Source of the DNA: an uncultured Clostridia bacterium
GTDB lineage: Bacteria > Bacillota > Clostridia > Christensenellales > CAG-917
NCBI GenBank assembly: GCA_934233745.1
Contig: CAKQGN010000005.1
Span: forward strand, 37,257 to 101,256
DNA length: 64,000 bases
Reading direction: 5' to 3'
Both the position numbers and the translations under genes were made by a program. The notes under the pieces are model-generated. The model searched no databases. It saw only the letters and a program-made list of their open reading frames with translations, and was not told where the DNA came from. Shown here piece by piece: positions 4,065-53,236 of this stretch (its first letter is position 1; each line of letters starts with the position of its first letter).

Positions 4065-6272
4065 ATGATAGAAATAATCGACAAACCGACATTTTATTTG
4101 AACGGCAATCTCGTATCCGAACGCGAATTGATTGCAAAAGGCGTAAAACCGACAGGGGAAAAGGGCACGATAGCGTACTCTGTATTGTCTTGCCATAACG
4201 TTTCTCGCAACGAGCGAAAACTCAGCATATATTTCGACGCGTTGGCATCTCACGATATTACTTATGTCGGAATAATCAATTCTGCAAAAGCAAGCGGACT
4301 AAAAGAATTCCCCGTGCCGTATGTGCTTACAAACTGTCACAATTCGCTTTGCGCAGTCGGAGGCACAATAAATGAGGACGACCACGTTTTCGGCTTGTCT
4401 TGCGCAAAGAAATACGGCGGCATTTACGTTCCTGCAAACGTTGCGGTTATTCACAGTTTTATGAGAGAGATGTTTGCAGGTTGCGGAAAAATGATTTTGG
4501 GTTCGGATTCGCACACAAGATATGGCGCAATCGGAACCATGGCAATCGGCGAGGGCGGTCCCGAACTCGTCAAGCAACTTTTGCGACGTACATACGATAT
4601 AGACTATCCGCGTATAATTGCCGTCTGTCTGAAAGGCAAGGTGAGAAAAGGCGTCGGACCTCAGGACGTCGCTCTTGCTCTTATAGGCAAAGTGTTCAAG
4701 GACGGTTTTGTAAAAAACGCCGTGTTGGAATTCGTGGGCGACGGCATCAAAAATCTTTCCATGGAGTTCAGAAACGGAATAGACGTTATGACAACGGAAA
4801 GCGCATGTTTGTCATCCGTGTGGTGTACCGACGACAAGACCGAAGAATACCTCAGAACATACGGAAGAGAAAAAGATTATAAGAAACTGCAACCCGAAGA
4901 AGGCGCACAATATGACGGTGGAATCGTAATCGACCTTGAAAAGGTCGAGCCGATGATTGCTCTTCCGTTTCATCCTTCAAACGTGTACAAGCTCTCGGAT
5001 GTTATCGCTCATCCTTATGAGATATTATCGAAAGTCGAGAAGGAAGGGAACGCTTTGTTGGGACTCAAAGACGGAACGTTCAGACTGACCGACAAGATCG
5101 TCGACGGAAAAATAATCGTATCCCAAGGCGTTATCGCAGGTTGCGCGGGCGGCACGTATGACAACATTGCCGTTGCGGCGAATATTCTCAAAGGAAAGAG
5201 CGTCGGCAACGGAAGTTATTCGCTTGCGGTATATCCCGCCTCGCAACCGACAAATATCGCGCTTGTCAAAAACGGCATTGTCGCGTCTATGATGGAAAGC
5301 GGCGTGATTTTTAAGCCTTGTTTTTGCGGACCGTGTTTCGGTGCGGGAGATGTGCCGTGCAACAACGGGTTCAGCATTCGTCACACCACGAGAAATTTCG
5401 AAAGGCGAGAGGGAAGCAAGCCCGCAGACAACCAGATTGCGTCCGTTGCGCTTATGGATGCGCGCTCGATTGCGGCAACCAGTGCCAACGGAGGCGTTTT
5501 GACATCGGCACTTGATGTCGACTTCGACGATTCGATTGCCGAATTCACATACGATGACAAGGTGTATTCCTCGCGTGTGTACAACGGTTATGGCAAAGCC
5601 GATCCCGCCGTGTCGCTTGTGTACGGACCGAATATCACGGATATTCCGACACTCGAACCGCTGAAAAACAATCTCGCGCTAAAAATATGCAGCGTAATAA
5701 ACGATCCCGTCACCACGACAGACGAGCTTATACCGTCCGGGGAAACTTCGTCATACAGGAGCAACCCGCTCAGACTTGCCGAGTTTGCTTTGTCGAGGAA
5801 AGATCCGATGTATGTTGCCAAAAGCAAGGCGGTGCGCGACGGTGACAATCAAGATGTAAAAACGGCGTTGGCTTTGCTCGGTATGGATTGCAAAAACACA
5901 ACTATTGCCTCCTGTATATTTGCAACAAAACCCGGTGACGGTAGTGCCAGAGAGCAGGCGGCAAGCTGTCAGCGGTTCTTGGGCGGAGGGGCGAATATCG
6001 CAAGAGAGTATGCAACAAAACGCTATCGCTCCAATCTTATCAATTGGGGGATGTTGCCTCTTGTCGATACGAAAAACGACTATCGCAACGGAGATATTGT
6101 TGTTATTGCGAACATCGACGATGTAGTAAAACAAGGGAAAACGGAGTTTGACGCATATCTTGTGCGTGACAACTCAACAAAAAAAATCAACTTGACAATG
6201 GGCGTTCTGACCGATTCGGAAAAGCAAATTGTTCTTGACGGCTGCTTAATAAACTATTATCGGGCAAATTGA
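4065..6272 (+). CDS. aconitase-family hydratase (aconitate hydratase-like, 735 aa)
   Basis: Aconitase-family motifs GSDSHTRYG, CFCGPCFGAGD and TRNFERREG. A swivel-domain-like C-terminus is present. Confidence 0.8.
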   Translation: MIEIIDKPTFYLNGNLVSERELIAKGVKPTGEKGTIAYSVLSCHNVSRNERKLSIYFDALASHDITYVGIINSAKASGLKEFPVPYVLTNCHNSLCAVGGTINEDDHVFGLSCAKKYGGIYVPANVAVIHSFMREMFAGCGKMILGSDSHTRYGAIGTMAIGEGGPELVKQLLRRTYDIDYPRIIAVCLKGKVRKGVGPQDVALALIGKVFKDGFVKNAVLEFVGDGIKNLSMEFRNGIDVMTTESACLSSVWCTDDKTEEYLRTYGREKDYKKLQPEEGAQYDGGIVIDLEKVEPMIALPFHPSNVYKLSDVIAHPYEILSKVEKEGNALLGLKDGTFRLTDKIVDGKIIVSQGVIAGCAGGTYDNIAVAANILKGKSVGNGSYSLAVYPASQPTNIALVKNGIVASMMESGVIFKPCFCGPCFGAGDVPCNNGFSIRHTTRNFERREGSKPADNQIASVALMDARSIAATSANGGVLTSALDVDFDDSIAEFTYDDKVYSSRVYNGYGKADPAVSLVYGPNITDIPTLEPLKNNLALKICSVINDPVTTTDELIPSGETSSYRSNPLRLAEFALSRKDPMYVAKSKAVRDGDNQDVKTALALLGMDCKNTTIASCIFATKPGDGSAREQAASCQRFLGGGANIAREYATKRYRSNLINWGMLPLVDTKNDYRNGDIVVIANIDDVVKQGKTEFDAYLVRDNSTKKINLTMGVLTDSEKQIVLDGCLINYYRAN

Positions 6273-6390
6273 CTTTTGGCGGTTATACGCGCGGTTTTTC
6301 TCACCGAATATGAAAATCTGTCACCAACAGGCGATCGATTTCATAAATATTTATGCGAGGTGAGTTATAAAAATCGTCGTCAAAGTTGAT

Positions 6391-7371
6391 TTGGAAAGAA
6401 TAAAAAGAAATGTCGATTCGATAAAAAAACATGTCGGCGTCCCGATTATGATGATGGTAAAAGCCGACGGATACGGGCACGGAATTTGCAAAGTCGCGCA
6501 CTATGTCGAGTCGGCGGTCGACGCTTTCGGAGTCGAAACTCTCCAAGAGGGTTTGAAGCTAAAAAGAGCCGGGATAAAAAAGACAATCCTTGTTCTTGCA
6601 CTGAGCGGAAGCGAAATCGAAACGGCATGTAAAAACGGATTGACAATCGGATTGCATAATGAGGCTCAATTGTGCAAAATCGTCAATCTAATCGAGCAAA
6701 AACATATAAAACCAACCGATTTCGATGTTCAGTTCAAAGTCGACAGCGGCATGCACAGATTGGGTTTTGACGAATCGGCATTGAAAAGGGCACTGCAAAA
6801 AGCAGAAAGATTCAAACTGAACGTGTCGGGAGTATATTCGCACTTGCGAGATGATACAGACTATCAAAAAGGCGAGTTTGACAGACTTGCAGACATAGTC
6901 AAATCGTATTATCCGCAAGCAAAAAAACATCTTGCGTCAAGCCATTCTCTTTCAAATCCGAATTTGAGATACGATATGGTAAGACTCGGTATCAAGGCGT
7001 ACGAAGGAGCGATGAGCGCATATTCTCAAGTTATCGAATCGAGGTCGCTCAAAGCGAGCGAGCGAGTAAGTTACGGTGACTATGCGCTTGAAAAAGACAC
7101 AAACACCGCAGTGATTTTCGGCGGATATGCGGACGGAATTGCAAGGGAAAATCCTTCATCCGTATATATCCGAGGGCAAAAATGCAATGTAATCGGCAAT
7201 GTTTGCATGGATTGTTTTGTTGTCGATACAGGCGATTTTATTGCAAAATTCGGCGATGAAGTTGTGCTTTTTGACGAAAATACGATAAATAGGGTTGCGT
7301 GTGAGAGGAATACAATCGAATATACGGTTATGACGTCGCTAAGAGGCAGAATCAAACGGATATATGTTTGA
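6391..7371 (+). CDS. alr: alanine racemase (start codon uncertain, within 6364-6391)
   Basis: PLP-lysine motif VKADGYGHG, N-terminal VDLERIKRN and C-terminal VCMDCFVVD. The frame opens at 6364 with no ATG or GTG before the TTG at 6391. Confidence 0.85.
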   Translation: MERIKRNVDSIKKHVGVPIMMMVKADGYGHGICKVAHYVESAVDAFGVETLQEGLKLKRAGIKKTILVLALSGSEIETACKNGLTIGLHNEAQLCKIVNLIEQKHIKPTDFDVQFKVDSGMHRLGFDESALKRALQKAERFKLNVSGVYSHLRDDTDYQKGEFDRLADIVKSYYPQAKKHLASSHSLSNPNLRYDMVRLGIKAYEGAMSAYSQVIESRSLKASERVSYGDYALEKDTNTAVIFGGYADGIARENPSSVYIRGQKCNVIGNVCMDCFVVDTGDFIAKFGDEVVLFDENTINRVACERNTIEYTVMTSLRGRIKRIYV

Positions 7372-20847: not shown

Positions 20848-21708
20848 ATGTTTGAAATCGTAACAGACAACACTGCCGACCTTTTTGAAGGTTATTACGA
20901 ACAAAATCCGACACGTCGCCTTCCGTTTTCATTTACGCTCGAAGATCGTTTTTATGAAAAAGACGACGAGTATCCGATCGAGCTTTTTTATGAAAAGCTG
21001 AAAGCGGGCAAACTTGTCAAGACATCGCAAATCAATCCGCACGATGCGCAAGTCATGTTCGAGCAGGTTTTGCAAGAGGGCAAAGACGTGCTTTATATCG
21101 GCTTTTCGTCGGGTATGAGCGGAAGTTTCGACAACATTTCGTATATAGCAAAAGGGTTGCGTATCAAATATCCCGATCGCAAAGTAATCGTCATCGACAC
21201 TCTTGCAGGCGCAGGCGGTGAAGGCTTGCTTGTCTACTATGCAAAAAAGATGCAGCAAGAGGGCAAGAGCATGGAAGAAATCGCCGAATGGGTTGAAACT
21301 CACAAACTCGACGCGCATCATTGTTTTATCGTAAGCGACCTTATAAATCTGCGCAACAGCGGTCGTATCTCGACTCTTGCCGCCCTTTTCGGAATGATTG
21401 TGCATATCAATCCCGTTTTGCAACTTACCACCGAGGGCAGAATCGGTATCGTGACAAAAGCAATAGGAAGGAAAAAATCCGTTTCCGAAATGGTCAAGTT
21501 TTTCAAAAACAACTATATAAAGGACGACAACGACTTTATTCTCATCGGACATACCAATTGCCCCGAGGAAGCACATGCTTTCGGAGCGCAGATAGAGCAA
21601 ATATCGGGCGGCGTTCCTGTCAAATACGGGTATATAAACCGCTTGGTATCCGGTTGCGCAGGCTACAATGCTTTGGCAGTATTCTTTATGGGCAAAACGC
21701 GTACCTGA
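20848..21708 (+). CDS. DegV family fatty-acid-binding protein
   Basis: AGGAG RBS. N-terminal IVTDNTADL; SSGMSGSF; ~286 aa is typical of DegV. Confidence 0.85.
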   Translation: MFEIVTDNTADLFEGYYEQNPTRRLPFSFTLEDRFYEKDDEYPIELFYEKLKAGKLVKTSQINPHDAQVMFEQVLQEGKDVLYIGFSSGMSGSFDNISYIAKGLRIKYPDRKVIVIDTLAGAGGEGLLVYYAKKMQQEGKSMEEIAEWVETHKLDAHHCFIVSDLINLRNSGRISTLAALFGMIVHINPVLQLTTEGRIGIVTKAIGRKKSVSEMVKFFKNNYIKDDNDFILIGHTNCPEEAHAFGAQIEQISGGVPVKYGYINRLVSGCAGYNALAVFFMGKTRT

Positions 21709-21720
21709 ATAAAACTTATA

Positions 21721-21753
21721 AAAAAACTCGCGTCGAAGAACGCGAGTTTTTTT
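21721..21753. terminator. bidirectional intrinsic terminator
   Basis: AAAAAACTCGCG..CGCGAGTTTTTTT. Confidence 0.7.
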
Positions 21754-21767
21754 ATGCTTATTAAGTT

Positions 21768-44971: not shown

Positions 44972-45157
44972 ATGGCAGTACCTAAAAATAAAGTGTCGAA
45001 ATCCAAAACGAATTCTCGTTTTGCAAACTGGAAACTCAAAACACCCGGTCTCACCGAGTGCCCCCAATGCCACGAATTGATCAAGAGCCACCAAGTATGT
45101 CCCAAATGCGGATATTATGACGGTGAGCAGGTTGTTCAAAAAAAGAGCGAAAAATAA
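44972..45157 (+). CDS. rpmF: 50S ribosomal protein L32
   Basis: MAVPKNKVSKSK N-terminus. Zinc ribbon CPQC..CPKC. Confidence 0.9.
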   Translation: MAVPKNKVSKSKTNSRFANWKLKTPGLTECPQCHELIKSHQVCPKCGYYDGEQVVQKKSEK

Positions 45158-45162
45158 TTTAA

Positions 45163-45272
45163 CCGCACTATTTGGCAAATTACATCGTAAGAGCCACTTT
45201 CCCAAACAGTCACGTACAAAGAGTACGCTTCTGCTTGTGAAAGCGGCTCTTTCTTGTGCTTTATCAAAGTGT
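45163..45272 (+). repeat. long-hairpin 3'-end element, copy 3
   Basis: Same architecture as 31677-31797. Stem AGAGCCACTTTCCCAAACAG..CTGCTTGTGAAAGCGGCTCT. Shared apex CAGTCACGTAC..AGTACGCT. Confidence 0.6.
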
Positions 45273-45324
45273 TGATTCATTGCGAGGAGCAACGAGAGTT
45301 GCGATAAGGCGTACTTATAAACGA

Positions 45325-45359
45325 TATGTGCAACTTCAAAGACGGAACACGAGCCGCAA
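45325..45359 (+). repeat. 35-nt direct repeat, copy 1
   Basis: TATGTGCAACTTCAAAGACGGAACACGAGCCGCAA, identical to 45519-45553. Confidence 0.85.
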
Positions 45360-45370
45360 CGGCAATGTAA

Positions 45371-45459
45371 GTGATATGCACGAATTCGTGCGTGATATTG
45401 TTGCTTTTTGCAACAATGATATTTGCGCTTTGCGCAAGTGATATTGCAACTTCGTTGCA
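45371..45459 (+). repeat. array of four [R]TGATAT-anchored mini-hairpins with four different perfect stems
   Basis: Four units: GTGATAT+GCACGAATTCGTGC, GTGATAT+TGTTGC-TTTTT-GCAACA, ATGATAT+TTGCGC-TTT-GCGCAA, GTGATAT+TGCAAC-TTC-GTTGCA. Confidence 0.85.
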
Positions 45460-45518
45460 GTTGTAGGTGGGACACTCACACCCGAACGGACACTTATTTA
45501 GGGCGTTCTTATACACGG

Positions 45519-45553
45519 TATGTGCAACTTCAAAGACGGAACACGAGCCGCAA
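45519..45553 (+). repeat. 35-nt direct repeat, copy 2
   Basis: Identical 35-mer, 194 bp downstream of copy 1. Confidence 0.85.
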
Positions 45554-45903
45554 GGCGGCGAGCAAGCGAACGCCGAGCTTGACGGATAGTACAAGCGACT
45601 GCGCCGTATTGTTGCGAAGCTGGCGCAAAAAGCGCAGTGGCATAATGAGGGAAATGTCCCTATCTATGCGAGTGCTGAGTGTTGTCCCCCGCTACGCGGT
45701 CACCGTGGGTGCCCTCAAGGTCACGCAGAGGGGGAACGGTGATAGGGAAAACACGTGAGGAAAGGGGACATAGTATTCAGAGTTCTAAACATTAACAATT
45801 TGTAGATGAAGAACAAAAGCACGTTTTGGGTTGTTAAATACTTCTTGTATTATTCTTTTGTTTTTGGTATAATTTGAAATAATAAAATACAATATGGTGA
45901 TTT

Positions 45904-46938
45904 ATGAAAATTATAGTTGACGCAATGGGGGGCGATAACGCTCCGTTGCAAATCGTGCTTGGCGCTGTTGAGGCATTGAAACAGGACAAACAGCTCAAAG
46001 TCGCTCTTGTGGGCGATGAATGCGCAATAAATCAATCGCTTGCCGAGTGCAAAGATTATGACAAGGGCAGATTGGATATAATCGACGCCAAGGACGTCAT
46101 CACAAACGATGACACGCCAACCACAGCGATAAGAACAAAAAAGGAAAGTTCGCTTGTCAAGGCTTTTGACGCGCTCAATCACGATGAGGAGGCGGGCGGT
46201 TTTGTGTCGGCAGGCTCAACCGGTGCCGTTTTGGTGGGAGCATACCTCAAAGTCGGGCGTATAAAAGGCGTAACTCGTCCTGCTCTTGCCCCTGTGCTTC
46301 CGACTCTCAAAGGCAACGGCGTTGTGCTTTGCGATTGCGGCGCAAACGTGGACTGCAAAAGCATAAACCTTGTTCATTTTGCTATTATGGCAAGTGCATA
46401 TGCCTCTGCAATGCTCGGTGCGAAAAATCCGCGCGTGGGACTTCTCAACAACGGTGTAGAGGAGCATAAAGGCAATGAACTTACACAAGAAGCACACAAG
46501 TTGCTTGCAAAAACCGAGGGTATAAATTTTGTCGGCAATTGTGAGGCAAGAGATATTCTGAGCGGTGATTTCGATGTGGTGGTGTGCGACGGCTTCAACG
46601 GCAATATCGCTCTCAAATCCGCAGAAGGCACGGCAAACACCATGCTTTCGCTCATAAAAGAGGGTGTCTACGGCGGAGGACTCAAATCAAAACTCGGCGC
46701 GCTTATGCTCAAACCCGTTTTTGCGGGCGTAAAAAAGAAAATGGACTACAACGCACACGGAGGCGCATGTTTCCTCGGCGTTAAAAAGGTTGTTGTCAAA
46801 TCACACGGAGCATCAAAAGCAAAATCAATCACCGCAAGTATCTTGCAGGCAAAATCTCTTGCGGACAGCCGAATTTGCGAGAAAATAGCAGAGGGTATGA
46901 GCGTTCTCGAAAAGCCCGAAACGCAAGCCAACGATTGA
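45904..46938 (+). CDS. plsX: phosphate acyltransferase
   Basis: MKIIVDAMGGDNAP N-terminus; VSAGSTGA; 344 aa. Confidence 0.95.
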   Translation: MKIIVDAMGGDNAPLQIVLGAVEALKQDKQLKVALVGDECAINQSLAECKDYDKGRLDIIDAKDVITNDDTPTTAIRTKKESSLVKAFDALNHDEEAGGFVSAGSTGAVLVGAYLKVGRIKGVTRPALAPVLPTLKGNGVVLCDCGANVDCKSINLVHFAIMASAYASAMLGAKNPRVGLLNNGVEEHKGNELTQEAHKLLAKTEGINFVGNCEARDILSGDFDVVVCDGFNGNIALKSAEGTANTMLSLIKEGVYGGGLKSKLGALMLKPVFAGVKKKMDYNAHGGACFLGVKKVVVKSHGASKAKSITASILQAKSLADSRICEKIAEGMSVLEKPETQAND

Positions 46939-51521: not shown

Positions 51522-51770
51522 CATTGCTCAAACGGCGTTGCGGTTATGGCAACCGCCCAAATGTCATTCCGAGGAGCAAAGCGACGTGGGAACCCCCTAA
51601 ACAGAAACGCGACACAGTGGCGATTGCCATTGACCGCACTTGCTCTCGCAATTACTACCGCGCAGAAAATCTTTGCTATCAGTTCGAGCATGGATAAAAA
51701 CTCCTGCCACAGTTCCGCAAGATTGTCTGCTTGGTGGGTGCGCCTTTGGCGCAAGTGGAATATCCAAATC
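51522..51770 (+). repeat. ~250-bp direct repeat, copy 1
   Basis: From CATTGCTCAAACGGCGTTGCGGTTATGGCAACCGCC through GTGCGCCTTTGGCGCAAG. A near-identical copy starts 444 bp downstream. Confidence 0.85.
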
Positions 51771-51965
51771 TTCCTTTTGTCATTGCGAGGAGTAACGGAT
51801 GTTGCGACGTGGCAATCAAGCGGAGCGAAATGCGCCTGATGGCTGGATTCCCACGCTTACGCTCTGAATGACACGGGTGGGACACCCACACCCGATTGTC
51901 ATGTTGAGTGTAGTCGAAACATCTCCTGGAAAGGAAATGATGTAAATTGTCACAAGTATAGCGCA

Positions 51966-52216
51966 CATTGCTCAAACGGCGTTGCGGTTATTGCAACCGC
52001 CCGAATGTCATTCCGAGGAGCAAAGCGACGTGGGAATCCCCTAAATAGAAATGCGACACAGTGGCGATTGCCATTGACCGCACTTGTTCTCGCAATCACT
52101 ACCGCGCAGAAAATCTTTGCTATCGGTTCTAGCAGGGGCAAAACTCCTGCCGCAGTTTCGCAAGATTGTCTGCTTGGTGTGTGCGCCTTTGGCGCAAGCT
52201 GAATATTCCACAATCC
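51966..52216 (+). repeat. ~250-bp direct repeat, copy 2
   Basis: Collinear with 51522-51770. Differs by scattered substitutions and one divergent short patch. Confidence 0.85.
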
Positions 52217-52228
52217 AAACAATGTTTG

Positions 52229-52311
52229 GATATCATCTCACAAAGTGCGATATCACCGTGCAAAGCACGATATCATCTCAAAGTGATATCACCGCCGCAG
52301 GCGATATATCA
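52229..52311 (+). repeat. array of five GATATCA / GATATATCA motifs interleaved with mini-hairpins
   Basis: GATATCA at 52229, 52249, 52269 and 52285; GATATATCA at 52303. CGTGC-AAA-GCACG and CAC-AAA-GTG lie between units. Confidence 0.8.
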
Positions 52312-52342
52312 TTACGCAACGTATATAAATATGGAGTACACT

Positions 52343-53236
52343 ATGGGATTTTTTCAAAAAATCGTTCAAGGTATAAAGAAAACCAAAGACGCGTTTTCAA
52401 AAAAACTGTTTTTTGCATTTTCTGCAAGAGAACTCAATGATGAGTTTTACGAGAATCTCGAAGAAGCGTTGCTCACCGCCGACGTCGGCATAACCGCAAC
52501 CGAAAACCTCATCGATGAACTTAAAGACGAGATTTTTAAGCGTAAAATCAAAAAGCCCGAGGACGCAAAAAGCGTGCTTGCCGAGCTTATGGTTGAGGAT
52601 ATCGACTATGATATTCCCGAATATGAGTATCCGCTTGTCATATTGCTTTCGGGCGTGAACGGTGTTGGCAAAACCACCGCAATAGGCAAACTCGCGCATA
52701 TGTTCAAAGAGCAAGGACGTTCGGTAGTCGTTGCCGCCGCGGATACGTTCAGAGCCGCCGCAAGCGAACAACTCGAAGTGTGGGGTGAGCGTGCCGGGGT
52801 GCGCGTGATTCGTCACAGCGAGGGCGCAGATCCTGCTGCCGTCGTGTTTGACGCTATATCGTCGGCAAAGGCAAAAGGCAATGACGTCGTGCTTGTTGAC
52901 ACCGCCGGAAGACTCCATAACAAGAAAAATCTTATGGCGGAACTTCAAAAGATTTGTCGCGTTGTCGAGCGAGAATTGCCAAATGCGGACTTCCGCAAAT
53001 ATCTCGTTCTTGACGCCACAACCGGTCAAAACGCCGTATCCCAAGCCGAGATTTTCAGCGAGGATATCGACACCGACGGTATAATTCTCACCAAACTTGA
53101 CGGAACGGCAAAGGGCGGCGTGGTGCTTGCCATCAGCGAGGAGCTTGGACTTCCGGTCGTTTACGTCGGTGTTGGCGAAAAAATCGACGATTTGATTCCT
53201 TTCGACGCGAAAGATTTTATTAACGCATTGCTTTGA
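52343..53236 (+). CDS. ftsY: signal recognition particle receptor FtsY (NG domain only)
   Basis: GGAG RBS precedes ATG 52343. GVNGVGKTT, DTAGRLH, TKLDGTAKGG. The ORF-track N-terminal extension lies in repeat DNA and was discarded. Confidence 0.9.
   Translation: MGFFQKIVQGIKKTKDAFSKKLFFAFSARELNDEFYENLEEALLTADVGITATENLIDELKDEIFKRKIKKPEDAKSVLAELMVEDIDYDIPEYEYPLVILLSGVNGVGKTTAIGKLAHMFKEQGRSVVVAAADTFRAAASEQLEVWGERAGVRVIRHSEGADPAAVVFDAISSAKAKGNDVVLVDTAGRLHNKKNLMAELQKICRVVERELPNADFRKYLVLDATTGQNAVSQAEIFSEDIDTDGIILTKLDGTAKGGVVLAISEELGLPVVYVGVGEKIDDLIPFDAKDFINALL

Follow-up and report, generated by a model that had tools for sequence, protein, structure and literature searches.

Hairpin arrays in the rpmF-plsX and smc-ftsY spacers

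The window analyzed here (the whole stretch of 64,000 nt from an uncultured Clostridia bacterium, contig CAKQGN010000005.1) contains the gene order pta-ackA-rpmF-plsX-rnc-smc-ftsY, and the 746-nt spacer between rpmF (L32) and plsX carries, in sense orientation, an array of small hairpins that is referred to below as array 1. Direct reading of the sequence revealed four consecutive units of 21, 24, 22 and 22 nt, each composed of an [R]TGATAT heptamer, termed the anchor, and a hairpin whose stem is a perfect 6-bp palindrome, unit 1 being more realistically a 5-bp stem with an AATT loop (cf. Table 1). The start of plsX lies 445 nt from the array. The preliminary description of this locus, which a model had made from the letters of the sequence alone, proved accurate as to the four hairpin units, their constant anchor, their perfect stems and their lengths of 21-24 nt, and it had missed both a second array in the smc-ftsY spacer (array 2) and a 55-nt direct repeat around array 1. 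A regular expression (TGATAT, a perfect 6-bp stem and a loop of 0-7 nt), run on both strands of the window, matched the four units of array 1 in register and just one other site, at 52235 on the minus strand. When the window was simulated with a first-order Markov model, single matches over both strands averaged 0.155 and reached a maximum of 2, so that four adjacent units in register are far beyond chance. The description had allowed for a pattern no commoner than in shuffled sequence, or one confined to this single site; the element turned out to be strongly enriched and to recur in relatives, though the copy in array 1 itself is not kept in all strains.

A sensitive scan with the Rfam models revealed a full-length match of array 1 to the Gut-1 motif (RF01706) at 45369-45449 on the plus strand (48.7 bits; local E = 2e-8, whole-window E = 1.5e-6). 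Array 2, which lies on the minus strand, scored 44.5 bits against the same model, and both matches span it from end to end without reaching the gathering cut-off for Gut-1, which is 50 bits. Since this threshold is a curated cut-off and not a structural feature, we filed the two arrays as divergent homologs just below it. Gut-1 (earlier 'gt-1') was reported by Weinberg et al. (2010, Genome Biol 11:R31; PMC2864571) as three to four short covarying hairpins joined by GUGAAAU, and its seed alignment already holds GUGAUAU variants as well as a forward array with a reverse-complement array (hairpin-AUAUCAC) after it. The motif came solely from human-gut metagenome sequence, shows 18 covarying positions and was rated as certainly an RNA and probably not cis-regulatory, with no function given (PMC2864571). 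In the seed list of the same work, four matches on contig BAAZ01000130.1 are spaced exactly 240 nt apart, which implies a tandem multi-copy arrangement of the whole element.

The window arrays share with Gut-1 the hairpins and GUGAUAU linkers, the gut Clostridia-type setting and the end-to-end model match; where the motif has at least three short hairpins split by GUGAWAU linkers, array 1 has four anchors with four hairpins and array 2 has five anchors. They differ from it in being single and not double arrays, in scoring just under the cut-off and in having no adjoining tRNA gene or gene of the protein family PF05635 (see below). Furthermore, BLAST aligned array 1 with the array of locus L051 (81% over 59 nt), which itself scores 52.0 bits against the Gut-1 model, and with those of L057 and L078 (77% over about 60 nt); L057 also has a Gut-1 match above the cut-off at neighboring coordinates (54.4 bits).

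The pattern GTGAWAT-N12-20-GTGAWAT-N12-20-TGAWAT was then scanned in one genome per species, covering 185,579 species, and returned at least 120 loci. Among the matches listed, to which the family-wide counts of genes and neighbors given below also refer, about 70 are true arrays with three to four anchors, each with a hairpin. Nearly all of them come from metagenome-assembled genomes (MAGs) of gut or rumen Clostridia (Oscillospiraceae, Acutalibacteraceae, Christensenellaceae and Eubacteriales), and a few from Akkermansia and Bacteroidaceae. Sixteen of the 18 listed loci that were tested have Gut-1 matches above the Rfam cut-off (52-88 bits), which identifies the pattern family as RF01706. The arrays are multi-copy, often sit at contig ends and were intergenic in 66 of 74 cases.

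Stem pairs were counted per unit by scripts, MAFFT having mis-registered the repeat units of four-unit arrays. In 205 unique units with 1210 pairs and many different stems, 1181 pairs were Watson-Crick (97.6%) and 29 were not (6 G·U, 11 A·C and 12 other mismatches). Terminator-like hairpins chosen by the same rules from the same loci had 2014 Watson-Crick, 34 G·U, 22 A·C and 55 other pairs, and by this comparison the array stems are unusually perfect. Complete Gut-1 units, furthermore, contain position-specific compensatory changes. A constant heptamer thus stands beside hairpins that are conserved in pairing and not in sequence, as had been proposed from array 1 alone, and the contrast that had been drawn with repetitive extragenic palindromic (REP) sequences and CRISPR repeats is fair, since the anchor is constant and the palindromes vary. 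The four stems of array 1 differ from each other and from those of array 2, so that the test for REP sequences or bacterial interspersed mosaic elements (BIMEs) failed; CRISPR is contradicted by a constant part of 7 nt, units of 21-24 nt and a palindromic variable part, and no CRISPR family reached the threshold in the window. Two further candidates were rejected: mini-open reading frames with an RTG start and the TGA of the next anchor as stop, as units 21, 24 and 22 nt long do not stay in frame, and extended -10 promoters or parS, Rex, Fur and DnaA boxes, which by inspection were inconsistent across units.

We have little doubt that array 1 is a slightly divergent solo copy of Gut-1. The finding in the window is therefore mostly explained as a sub-threshold copy of a motif catalogued in 2010, and the impression that it belonged to no described element class had to be given up.

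Complete Gut-1 units beside tRNA and PF05635 genes

Clustering of 270 open reading frames (ORFs) near 61 array loci (among the matches listed) revealed one recurrent family, present at eight loci and in seven of these at most 54 nt from the array; tblastn added two loci (L109 and L045), so that the gene adjoins arrays in 9-10 of the 61. It encodes a protein of 115-140 amino acids that matches PF05635 (23S rRNA intervening-sequence protein; E = 1e-27) and TIGR02436 (four helix bundle protein), and whose nearest relative of known structure, 2RLD (E = 3.5e-37), was deposited with five chains. For the reverse test, 57 metagenome loci were used that encode a homolog and have at least 300 nt upstream of it, and a double array was scored when three or more reverse anchors lay no further than 160 nt from the start, with two or more forward anchors further up. 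Such a double array was present upstream of the PF05635 gene in 54 of the 57 loci, compared with none of 54 control windows taken after the gene. A tRNA gene lies within 400 nt in 14 of the 61 listed array loci, which is about 13 times the chance expectation, and in 25 of 47 loci a tRNA gene ends at most 420 nt upstream, always co-oriented and with 19 different anticodons represented.

The layout of this cassette is nearly invariant. At the CCA end of the tRNA a palindromic terminator starts directly (long A-tract, palindrome and T-tract), followed by [A/G]CGAAAT or GTGAAAT with a hairpin X-loop-X' and by three GTGAAAT-hairpin units. The center is formed by X'-ATTTCAT, after which come three or four units of hairpin-ATTTCAC, a sigma-70 promoter that is close to the consensus and often has an extended -10, a ribosome-binding site, the PF05635 gene and a terminator; the forward and the reverse-complement array face each other within about 160 nt. 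No earlier report of this tRNA/double-array/PF05635 context was found. Literature searches on what Gut-1 does, or what PF05635 proteins do outside diversity-generating retroelements (DGRs), yielded nothing usable, and within the library searched Gut-1 is mentioned in the original 2010 paper only. In Rfam the motif is labeled as a small RNA (sRNA) gene without function or context, and neither the tRNA/PF05635 context nor the strain variability shown below forms part of the 2010 description. In an Akkermansia MAG (L018, approximately positions 5850-6800), a PF05635 gene has near-identical hairpin arrays with a GTTATAT/ATATAAC anchor on either side, which suggests sister families with other heptamers.

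Two known systems resemble the cassette in part. The 23S rRNA intervening sequences with a PF05635 ORF (Leptospira, Coxiella and others) have the same protein family (PF05635/TIGR02436), a stable-RNA operon context and long perfect stems; however, the cassette follows tRNA genes and does not interrupt 23S rRNA helices, its arrays lie upstream of the gene's own promoter in place of one stem around the ORF, and no such intervening sequence occurs in the window. Type III toxin-antitoxin systems (ToxI/ToxN, CptIN) also have a short structured repeat array directly upstream of a small protein gene, and their repeat RNA presumably binds a multimeric protein. ToxI repeats are identical direct repeats of 34-45 nt followed by a terminator and an endoribonuclease gene, whereas the cassette has differing units in two opposed sets, and a promoter, not a terminator, before a non-nuclease-like protein. 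Array 1 likewise failed a ToxI-like test, as its units differ and the downstream gene is the distant plsX.

Twenty complete units, oriented by the direction of the tRNA and the gene, were folded with RNAalifold. This analysis revealed an 11-bp long-range helix, [GAAAU+X]:[X'+AUUUC], in which the first anchor and X pair with the center X' and its anchor (98.6% paired). In six of the 11 pairs both partners vary; the anchor pair is GC in 9 units, GU in 6, UA in 4 and UG in 1, and G·U pairs are present in the helix without any A·C. Its covariation score was 0.626 as against 0.181 in shuffles, none of 500 of which reached it, and slid registers scored at most 0.18. Since X' at the center is a second copy of the first hairpin's local 3' arm, this part of the covariation is not independent, whereas that of the anchor pair is. 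In addition, when the sense strand is read, 19 of 110 unique proximal hairpins contain tandem G·A/A·G pairs in a covarying Watson-Crick context, and 1 of 56 distal ones contains the mirror C·T/T·C. The covarying long-range helix and the strand-specific tandem G·A pairs thus indicate that complete units probably fold as a single strand. We favor RNA as the simplest identity of the folding sense strand, single-stranded DNA being also possible. The hairpin next to the center (e.g., in L157, L174, L202 and L223) often combines tandem G·A/A·G pairs with a GAA or GCA triloop on the gene-sense strand, as in ATC-GA-AC GAA GT-GA-GAT, where the flanking pairs covary. A ladder of anchor-anchor pairs between both arrays was rejected, as position-specific G/A variants mismatch their nested partners; just the outermost pair, between the first anchor and the center, was supported.

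Strain variation and repeat modules around the arrays

The window was compared with ten contigs that encode an identical AckA, all from human-gut metagenomes or MAGs and evidently of the same species. Their rpmF-plsX spacers measure 234, 555, 671, 691 or 868 nt, compared with 746 nt in the window, and array 1 is present in 7 of the 11 sequences (the window and 6 of the 10 contigs). In L135 it is cleanly absent and one hybrid copy of the 55-nt repeat is left; in L132 and L133 another repeat module sits in its place between the same flanks; and in L137 the whole block of about 500 nt is absent, which leaves the 234-nt spacer. Among the carriers, the TGATAT cores are unchanged and three uncompensated stem substitutions occur (A·C, C·U and U·G). 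Strain indels also rule out as genes the ORFs that overlap array 1, which are short and mutually overlapping. The sister species (ten loci with an identical L32) has an unalignable 295-nt spacer without the array, and these loci therefore say little on its conservation. An exact look-up of PlsX returned one short contig only, which breaks inside the spacer at window position 45744. Taken together, the uncompensated substitutions and the present, deleted, replaced and empty states make array 1 look like a dispensable solo copy, and we consider it highly probable that this copy is indeed dispensable. It would then be an orphan, largely neutral copy and not a regulator of rpmF or plsX.

Array 2 runs antisense to smc-ftsY and ends about 20 nt upstream of the ftsY start. 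Nine strains, counting the window, were available for it (retrieved by the FtsY protein, with the start at 52343); all nine have the array, with two hairpins in five of them and five in the remaining four (window included), and one of its units passes across strains through a series from perfect to G·U to G·A. The smc-ftsY spacer ranges from 127 to 839 nt among strains. At array 1, a search for the closing helix of a double array found no ATATCAC anchors in 45158-45903 and no reverse partner. Moreover, the sole tRNA gene of the window adjoins neither array, and tblastn with eight family proteins found no PF05635 gene in the window or in the fetched strain loci. Having neither a PF05635 gene nor a tRNA gene nearby, the window arrays are solo copies.

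Each of the two spacers is a mosaic in which further dispersed repeats are combined. A module of about 290 nt (45499-45790), GC-rich, strongly folding and without an Rfam match, also lies inverted in the smc-ftsY spacer of L145, next to array 2, and is thus itself a dispersed repeat. The motif GTCATT[CG]NGAG..(short hairpin)..CGTGG[CG]AATC recurs near Gut-1 arrays, on the plus strand at 45277-45306, 51563-51595, 51779-51820 and 52007-52040, in reverse at 51845-51874, and in unrelated genomes including a Bacteroidaceae MAG (L014, about 1511-1533; L095, about 6500-6534); a pair of these motifs is what takes the place of array 1 in L132 and L133. Another module, GGTGGGACAC[TC]CACACCCGA, follows array 1 at 45466-45485 with a 5-bp hairpin in most strains (GTGGG-ACA-CCCAC), and is found again in the smc-ftsY spacer at 51876-51895. 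Most of this 839-nt spacer is filled by a direct repeat of about 245 nt (51522-51763 and 51966-52206; 93% identical, 444 nt apart), and strains with an identical FtsY that do not have it have smc-ftsY spacers of only 127-154 nt. The point after ftsY is strain-variable too, with a gene for an Mrr-type restriction endonuclease (PF04471) in L146 and L149 and ylxM-ffh in other strains.

Table 1. Positions of the arrays, their parts and other features of the window, with the cassette loci used for comparison (L numbers denote comparison loci)
Feature	Position	Strand	Sequence	Evidence and variants
rpmF (L32)	44972..45157			
Long hairpin with T-rich tail (63 nt), likely rpmF terminator	45189..45251	+		Inverted repeat; 120 nt upstream of array 1
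55-nt direct repeat bracketing array 1, left copy	45305..45359	+		Copies 93% identical
Array 1	45371..45459	+		Four units in register
Anchor 1	45371..45377	+	GTGATAT	Sequence, regular expression; aligns with the Gut-1 linker GUGAAAU (Rfam)
Hairpin 1	45378..45391	+	GCACG-AATT-CGTGC (perfect palindrome GCACGAATTCGTGC)	L134, L136, L139, L141: loop alone differs (CAAG), stem retained
Anchor 2	45392..45398	+	GTGATAT	Sequence, regular expression, Rfam alignment
Hairpin 2	45399..45415	+	TGTTGC-TTTTT-GCAACA (TGTTGCTTTTTGCAACA)	Stem also after an anchor in L032 and L087; L134-type strains TATTGC..GCAACA (uncompensated A·C)
Anchor 3	45416..45422	+	ATGATAT	GTGATAT in strains L134 and L140
Hairpin 3	45423..45437	+	TTGCGC-TTT-GCGCAA (TTGCGCTTTGCGCAA)	Stem also in L095; L138 TTGTGC..GCGCAA (U·G)
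Anchor 4	45438..45444	+	GTGATAT	Sequence, regular expression
Hairpin 4	45445..45459	+	TGCAAC-TTC-GTTGCA (TGCAACTTCGTTGCA)	L134-type strains GTTTCA (uncompensated mismatch)
Array 1 tail, degenerate anchor-like end	45460..45467	+	GTTGTAGG	Other single arrays end alike: GTTGTGGA in L095, GTTGAGGA in L037 and L072
55-nt direct repeat, right copy; opens the GC-rich module of about 290 nt (to about 45790)	45499..45553	+		Repeat search, strain comparison
plsX	45904..46938			
Array 2, second Gut-1-type array	52215..52312	-	Five [AG]TGATAT anchors	Rfam Gut-1 match at 52245-52314, E = 1.8e-5 for the whole window
Array 2 hairpins and tail	52215..52312	-	CGCC-TGC-GGCG, CACTTTGAG (degenerate), CGTGC-TTT-GCACG, CGCAC-TTT-GTGAG, CCAAAC-ATT-GTTTGG; tail ATTGTGGAATATTC	Anchors counted by eye
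tRNA gene, sole tRNA in the window	34362..34432	-		Adjoins no array
Large bacterial signal recognition particle RNA	31884..32147	-		151 bits; adjoins no array
Weak Thr operon leader match, probably chance	21686..21756	+		36.2 bits (cut-off 55), E = 0.005
Cassette loci: L150-L229 (metagenome), L023, L033, L036, L059, L079, L080, L109, L115			Terminator-hairpin loop often TTGTCTACCAGACAA	

Proposed role of Gut-1 and alternative explanations

The explanation that we prefer, with a probability of roughly one half, is that array 1 is a divergent solo copy of Gut-1 and that the complete form is a hairpin scaffold which shows its heptamers to a multimeric reader. The strand with tRNA and gene sense would fold on its own, and the hairpins would serve as sequence-free clamps and spacers that hold the heptamers (GUGAWAU or AUWUCAC) in a fixed geometry. 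The repeated heptamers might then be read by a multimeric nucleic-acid-binding factor recognizing the heptamer beside any hairpin, a possibility that the preliminary description had raised. The four-helix-bundle protein encoded beside complete copies would be the prime candidate for this reader, an assignment that we make only tentatively. No firmer is the proposal that Gut-1 may be the cis-acting half of a cassette whose PF05635 gene (Avd-like, its product probably pentameric) is the other half, and which would have placed itself at the CCA end of at least 19 tRNA genes, with the heptamers as binding sites of the multimer and solo arrays as orphan sites. The physical association of the double array with the PF05635 gene is observed in 54 of 57 loci, and it is the binding, mobility and function of the cassette that we infer. 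As for array 1, it may have spread, or been reshuffled, by recombination among the repeat modules that fill the enlarged spacers.

Several findings weigh against this explanation. Anchor-oriented stems show no wobble tolerance (6 G·U compared with 11 A·C in 1210 pairs), although the G·U excess of the terminator control was itself modest (34 versus 22), so that the wobble test alone cannot separate RNA from DNA; on the sense strand, G·T exceeds A·C by a small margin (about 10 versus 4). Loop sequences have a strong bias when read on the anchor strand (TTC 34, TGC 22, TTAC 11, TTGC 10 and TTT 10; GAA, GCA, GTAA and GCAA on the other strand), and this bias flips with anchor orientation, T(T/G)C versus G(A/C)A. 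The scarcity of wobble pairs and the flipping loop bias are both compatible with a DNA-level element read on both strands as well. Unit lengths range from 18 to 26 nt, and a rigid multimer would therefore need to tolerate variable spacing. Since no PF05635 gene was found in the window or the strain loci, any reader would there have to act in trans or be absent. T-type anchors (L033, L036 and L079) go with one PF05635 protein clade and A-type anchors (L023, L059, L080 and L115) with another, but this match is confounded by phylogeny, and both types coexist within one array in L013, L028 and L035. Finally, complete units have a strong promoter between the arrays and the gene, and a terminator before the arrays; the arrays could possibly be transcribed by read-through of this terminator or by divergent transcription from the symmetric -10 region.

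The main rival, which we regard as rather unlikely, is a selfish or recombinogenic repeat at the DNA level, similar to REP/BIME sequences or miniature inverted-repeat transposable elements, in which the hairpins form in single-stranded DNA, the heptamer is the site of a trans-acting DNA enzyme and RNA plays no role. Such an element would account for the multi-copy state, for the presence/absence and unit-number polymorphism within a species with its clean empty sites, and for the orientation of close array pairs, which were convergent in 8 of 8 cases (among the matches listed), as in BIMEs and REPINs (REP doublets forming hairpins). The arrays showed no orientation bias to genes or terminators: the upstream gene was co-directional in 23 cases and opposite in 23, the downstream gene split 19 to 20, and around single arrays terminators were equally frequent on either side. 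The perfection of the stems, which exceeds that of terminator-like hairpins and in which G·U is no commoner than A·C, points the same way, as do the loops GAA, GCA, GTAA and GCAA on the hairpin-ATWTCAC strand; c-GNA-g triloops give unusually stable DNA mini-hairpins. Moreover, the abutment of the cassette on the CCA end of 19 different tRNAs resembles targeted insertion.

However, no transposase-like family, including the Y1/HUH transposases associated with REP sequences (RAYTs), and no HUH nuclease or integrase family recurred among the clustered ORFs near the 61 listed array loci, where the sole enriched neighbor is the four-helix-bundle protein, which has no known catalytic role. No target-site duplications were seen at the arrays, and their palindromes differ between units, unlike those of REP sequences. 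The tandem G·A pairs confined to one strand, and the G·U without A·C in the long-range helix, are features that duplex DNA would not select. True arrays made up just 2-3 of 120 pattern matches in viral contigs, and a phage origin was rejected on this count. The comparison with REP/BIME and RAYT of Enterobacteria and Pseudomonas is mixed: both kinds of element are extragenic palindromes that exist in multiple copies, carry a short conserved oligonucleotide at the hairpin foot, often occur as inverted pairs, are intergenic and indifferent to gene orientation, and typically flank one protein gene. In REP sequences, though, the palindrome is conserved within a genome, whereas in Gut-1 only the heptamer is, and the partner is an HUH (Y1) transposase in one case and a small four-helix-bundle protein in the other, with strand-specific non-Watson-Crick features in complete Gut-1 units.

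We consider it improbable that Gut-1 is a free-standing, trans-acting sRNA gene with its own promoter, which would act on other RNAs or sponge an RNA-binding protein independently of the four-helix-bundle gene. Its repeated single-stranded motifs between hairpins resemble sponges of the CsrB/RsmZ type, which also have a short constant motif repeated on a hairpin scaffold of drifting sequence; however, the GGA of CsrB lies mostly in hairpin loops whereas the constant motif of Gut-1 is the linker, no CsrA-type partner is implicated, and transcription of Gut-1 is putative. An intrinsic terminator follows several single arrays on the anchor strand (L113, L094, L037 and L047), and the rating of Gut-1 as an RNA that is probably not cis-regulatory was based on covariation (PMC2864571). 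On the other hand, a consensus scan found no promoter upstream of array 1, the forward array of complete units starts at the terminator T-tract and leaves no room for one, and terminators are no commoner downstream of arrays than upstream. The loss or replacement of array 1 in conspecific strains and its uncompensated stem changes do not favor an sRNA gene either, and the fact that 54 of 57 loci are linked to a single protein family speaks against independence.

Far less probable still is a cis-acting part of the local transcripts, i.e., a multi-hairpin terminator, a 3' stabilizer of rpmF, or an operator or 5' leader of plsX (array 1) and ftsY (array 2). The sense orientation of array 1 between rpmF and plsX agrees with this idea, as do the distance of about 20 nt between array 2 and ftsY, a geometry also found upstream of PF05635 genes, and its presence in 9 of 9 strains; in some relatives (L094 and L072) the array begins right after a stop codon and ends with a terminator. 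However, no T-run follows any of the four hairpins of array 1, the sole terminator-scan match within it (45375-45394) is an artefact that spans an anchor, and a separate strong terminator-like hairpin already stands behind rpmF. Array 1 is, furthermore, remote from plsX and absent both from strains with identical flanking genes and from the sister species with the identical L32, and the family as a whole does not favor either orientation to genes.

A chance cluster, an ordinary tandem repeat or the de novo formation of palindromes by a templated process such as snap-back synthesis, the last of which the preliminary description had entertained, can be practically discarded: template-switch correction of quasi-palindromes could in principle give perfect stems of differing sequence, and slippage on the 7-nt microhomology could vary unit number as seen among strains, but the expectation of 0.155 single units per window and the Rfam E value contradict chance, homologous arrays whose stems are specific to their position are present in dozens of genomes, stem words are passed on and shared (of 495 inter-anchor words, 70 are common to more than one locus, ACGCCTGCGGCGT occurs in 11, and two of the four array 1 stems recur in other genomes), and stem substitutions in strains are ordinary point mutations, often uncompensated, that were not corrected to perfect palindromes.

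The wider meaning lies in the Gut-1 family. A motif that has been without function, host or context since 2010 is now assigned to gut and rumen Clostridia, with a few copies in Akkermansia and Bacteroidales, and is tied almost one-to-one to a PF05635 gene at tRNA 3' ends, in a multi-copy and strain-variable form. PF05635 is a long-standing orphan family, known from the ORF of 23S rRNA intervening sequences and as the family of the DGR accessory protein Avd. The cassette thus pairs two orphans, an RNA motif and a protein family, and a nucleic-acid partner would make the function of PF05635 testable.

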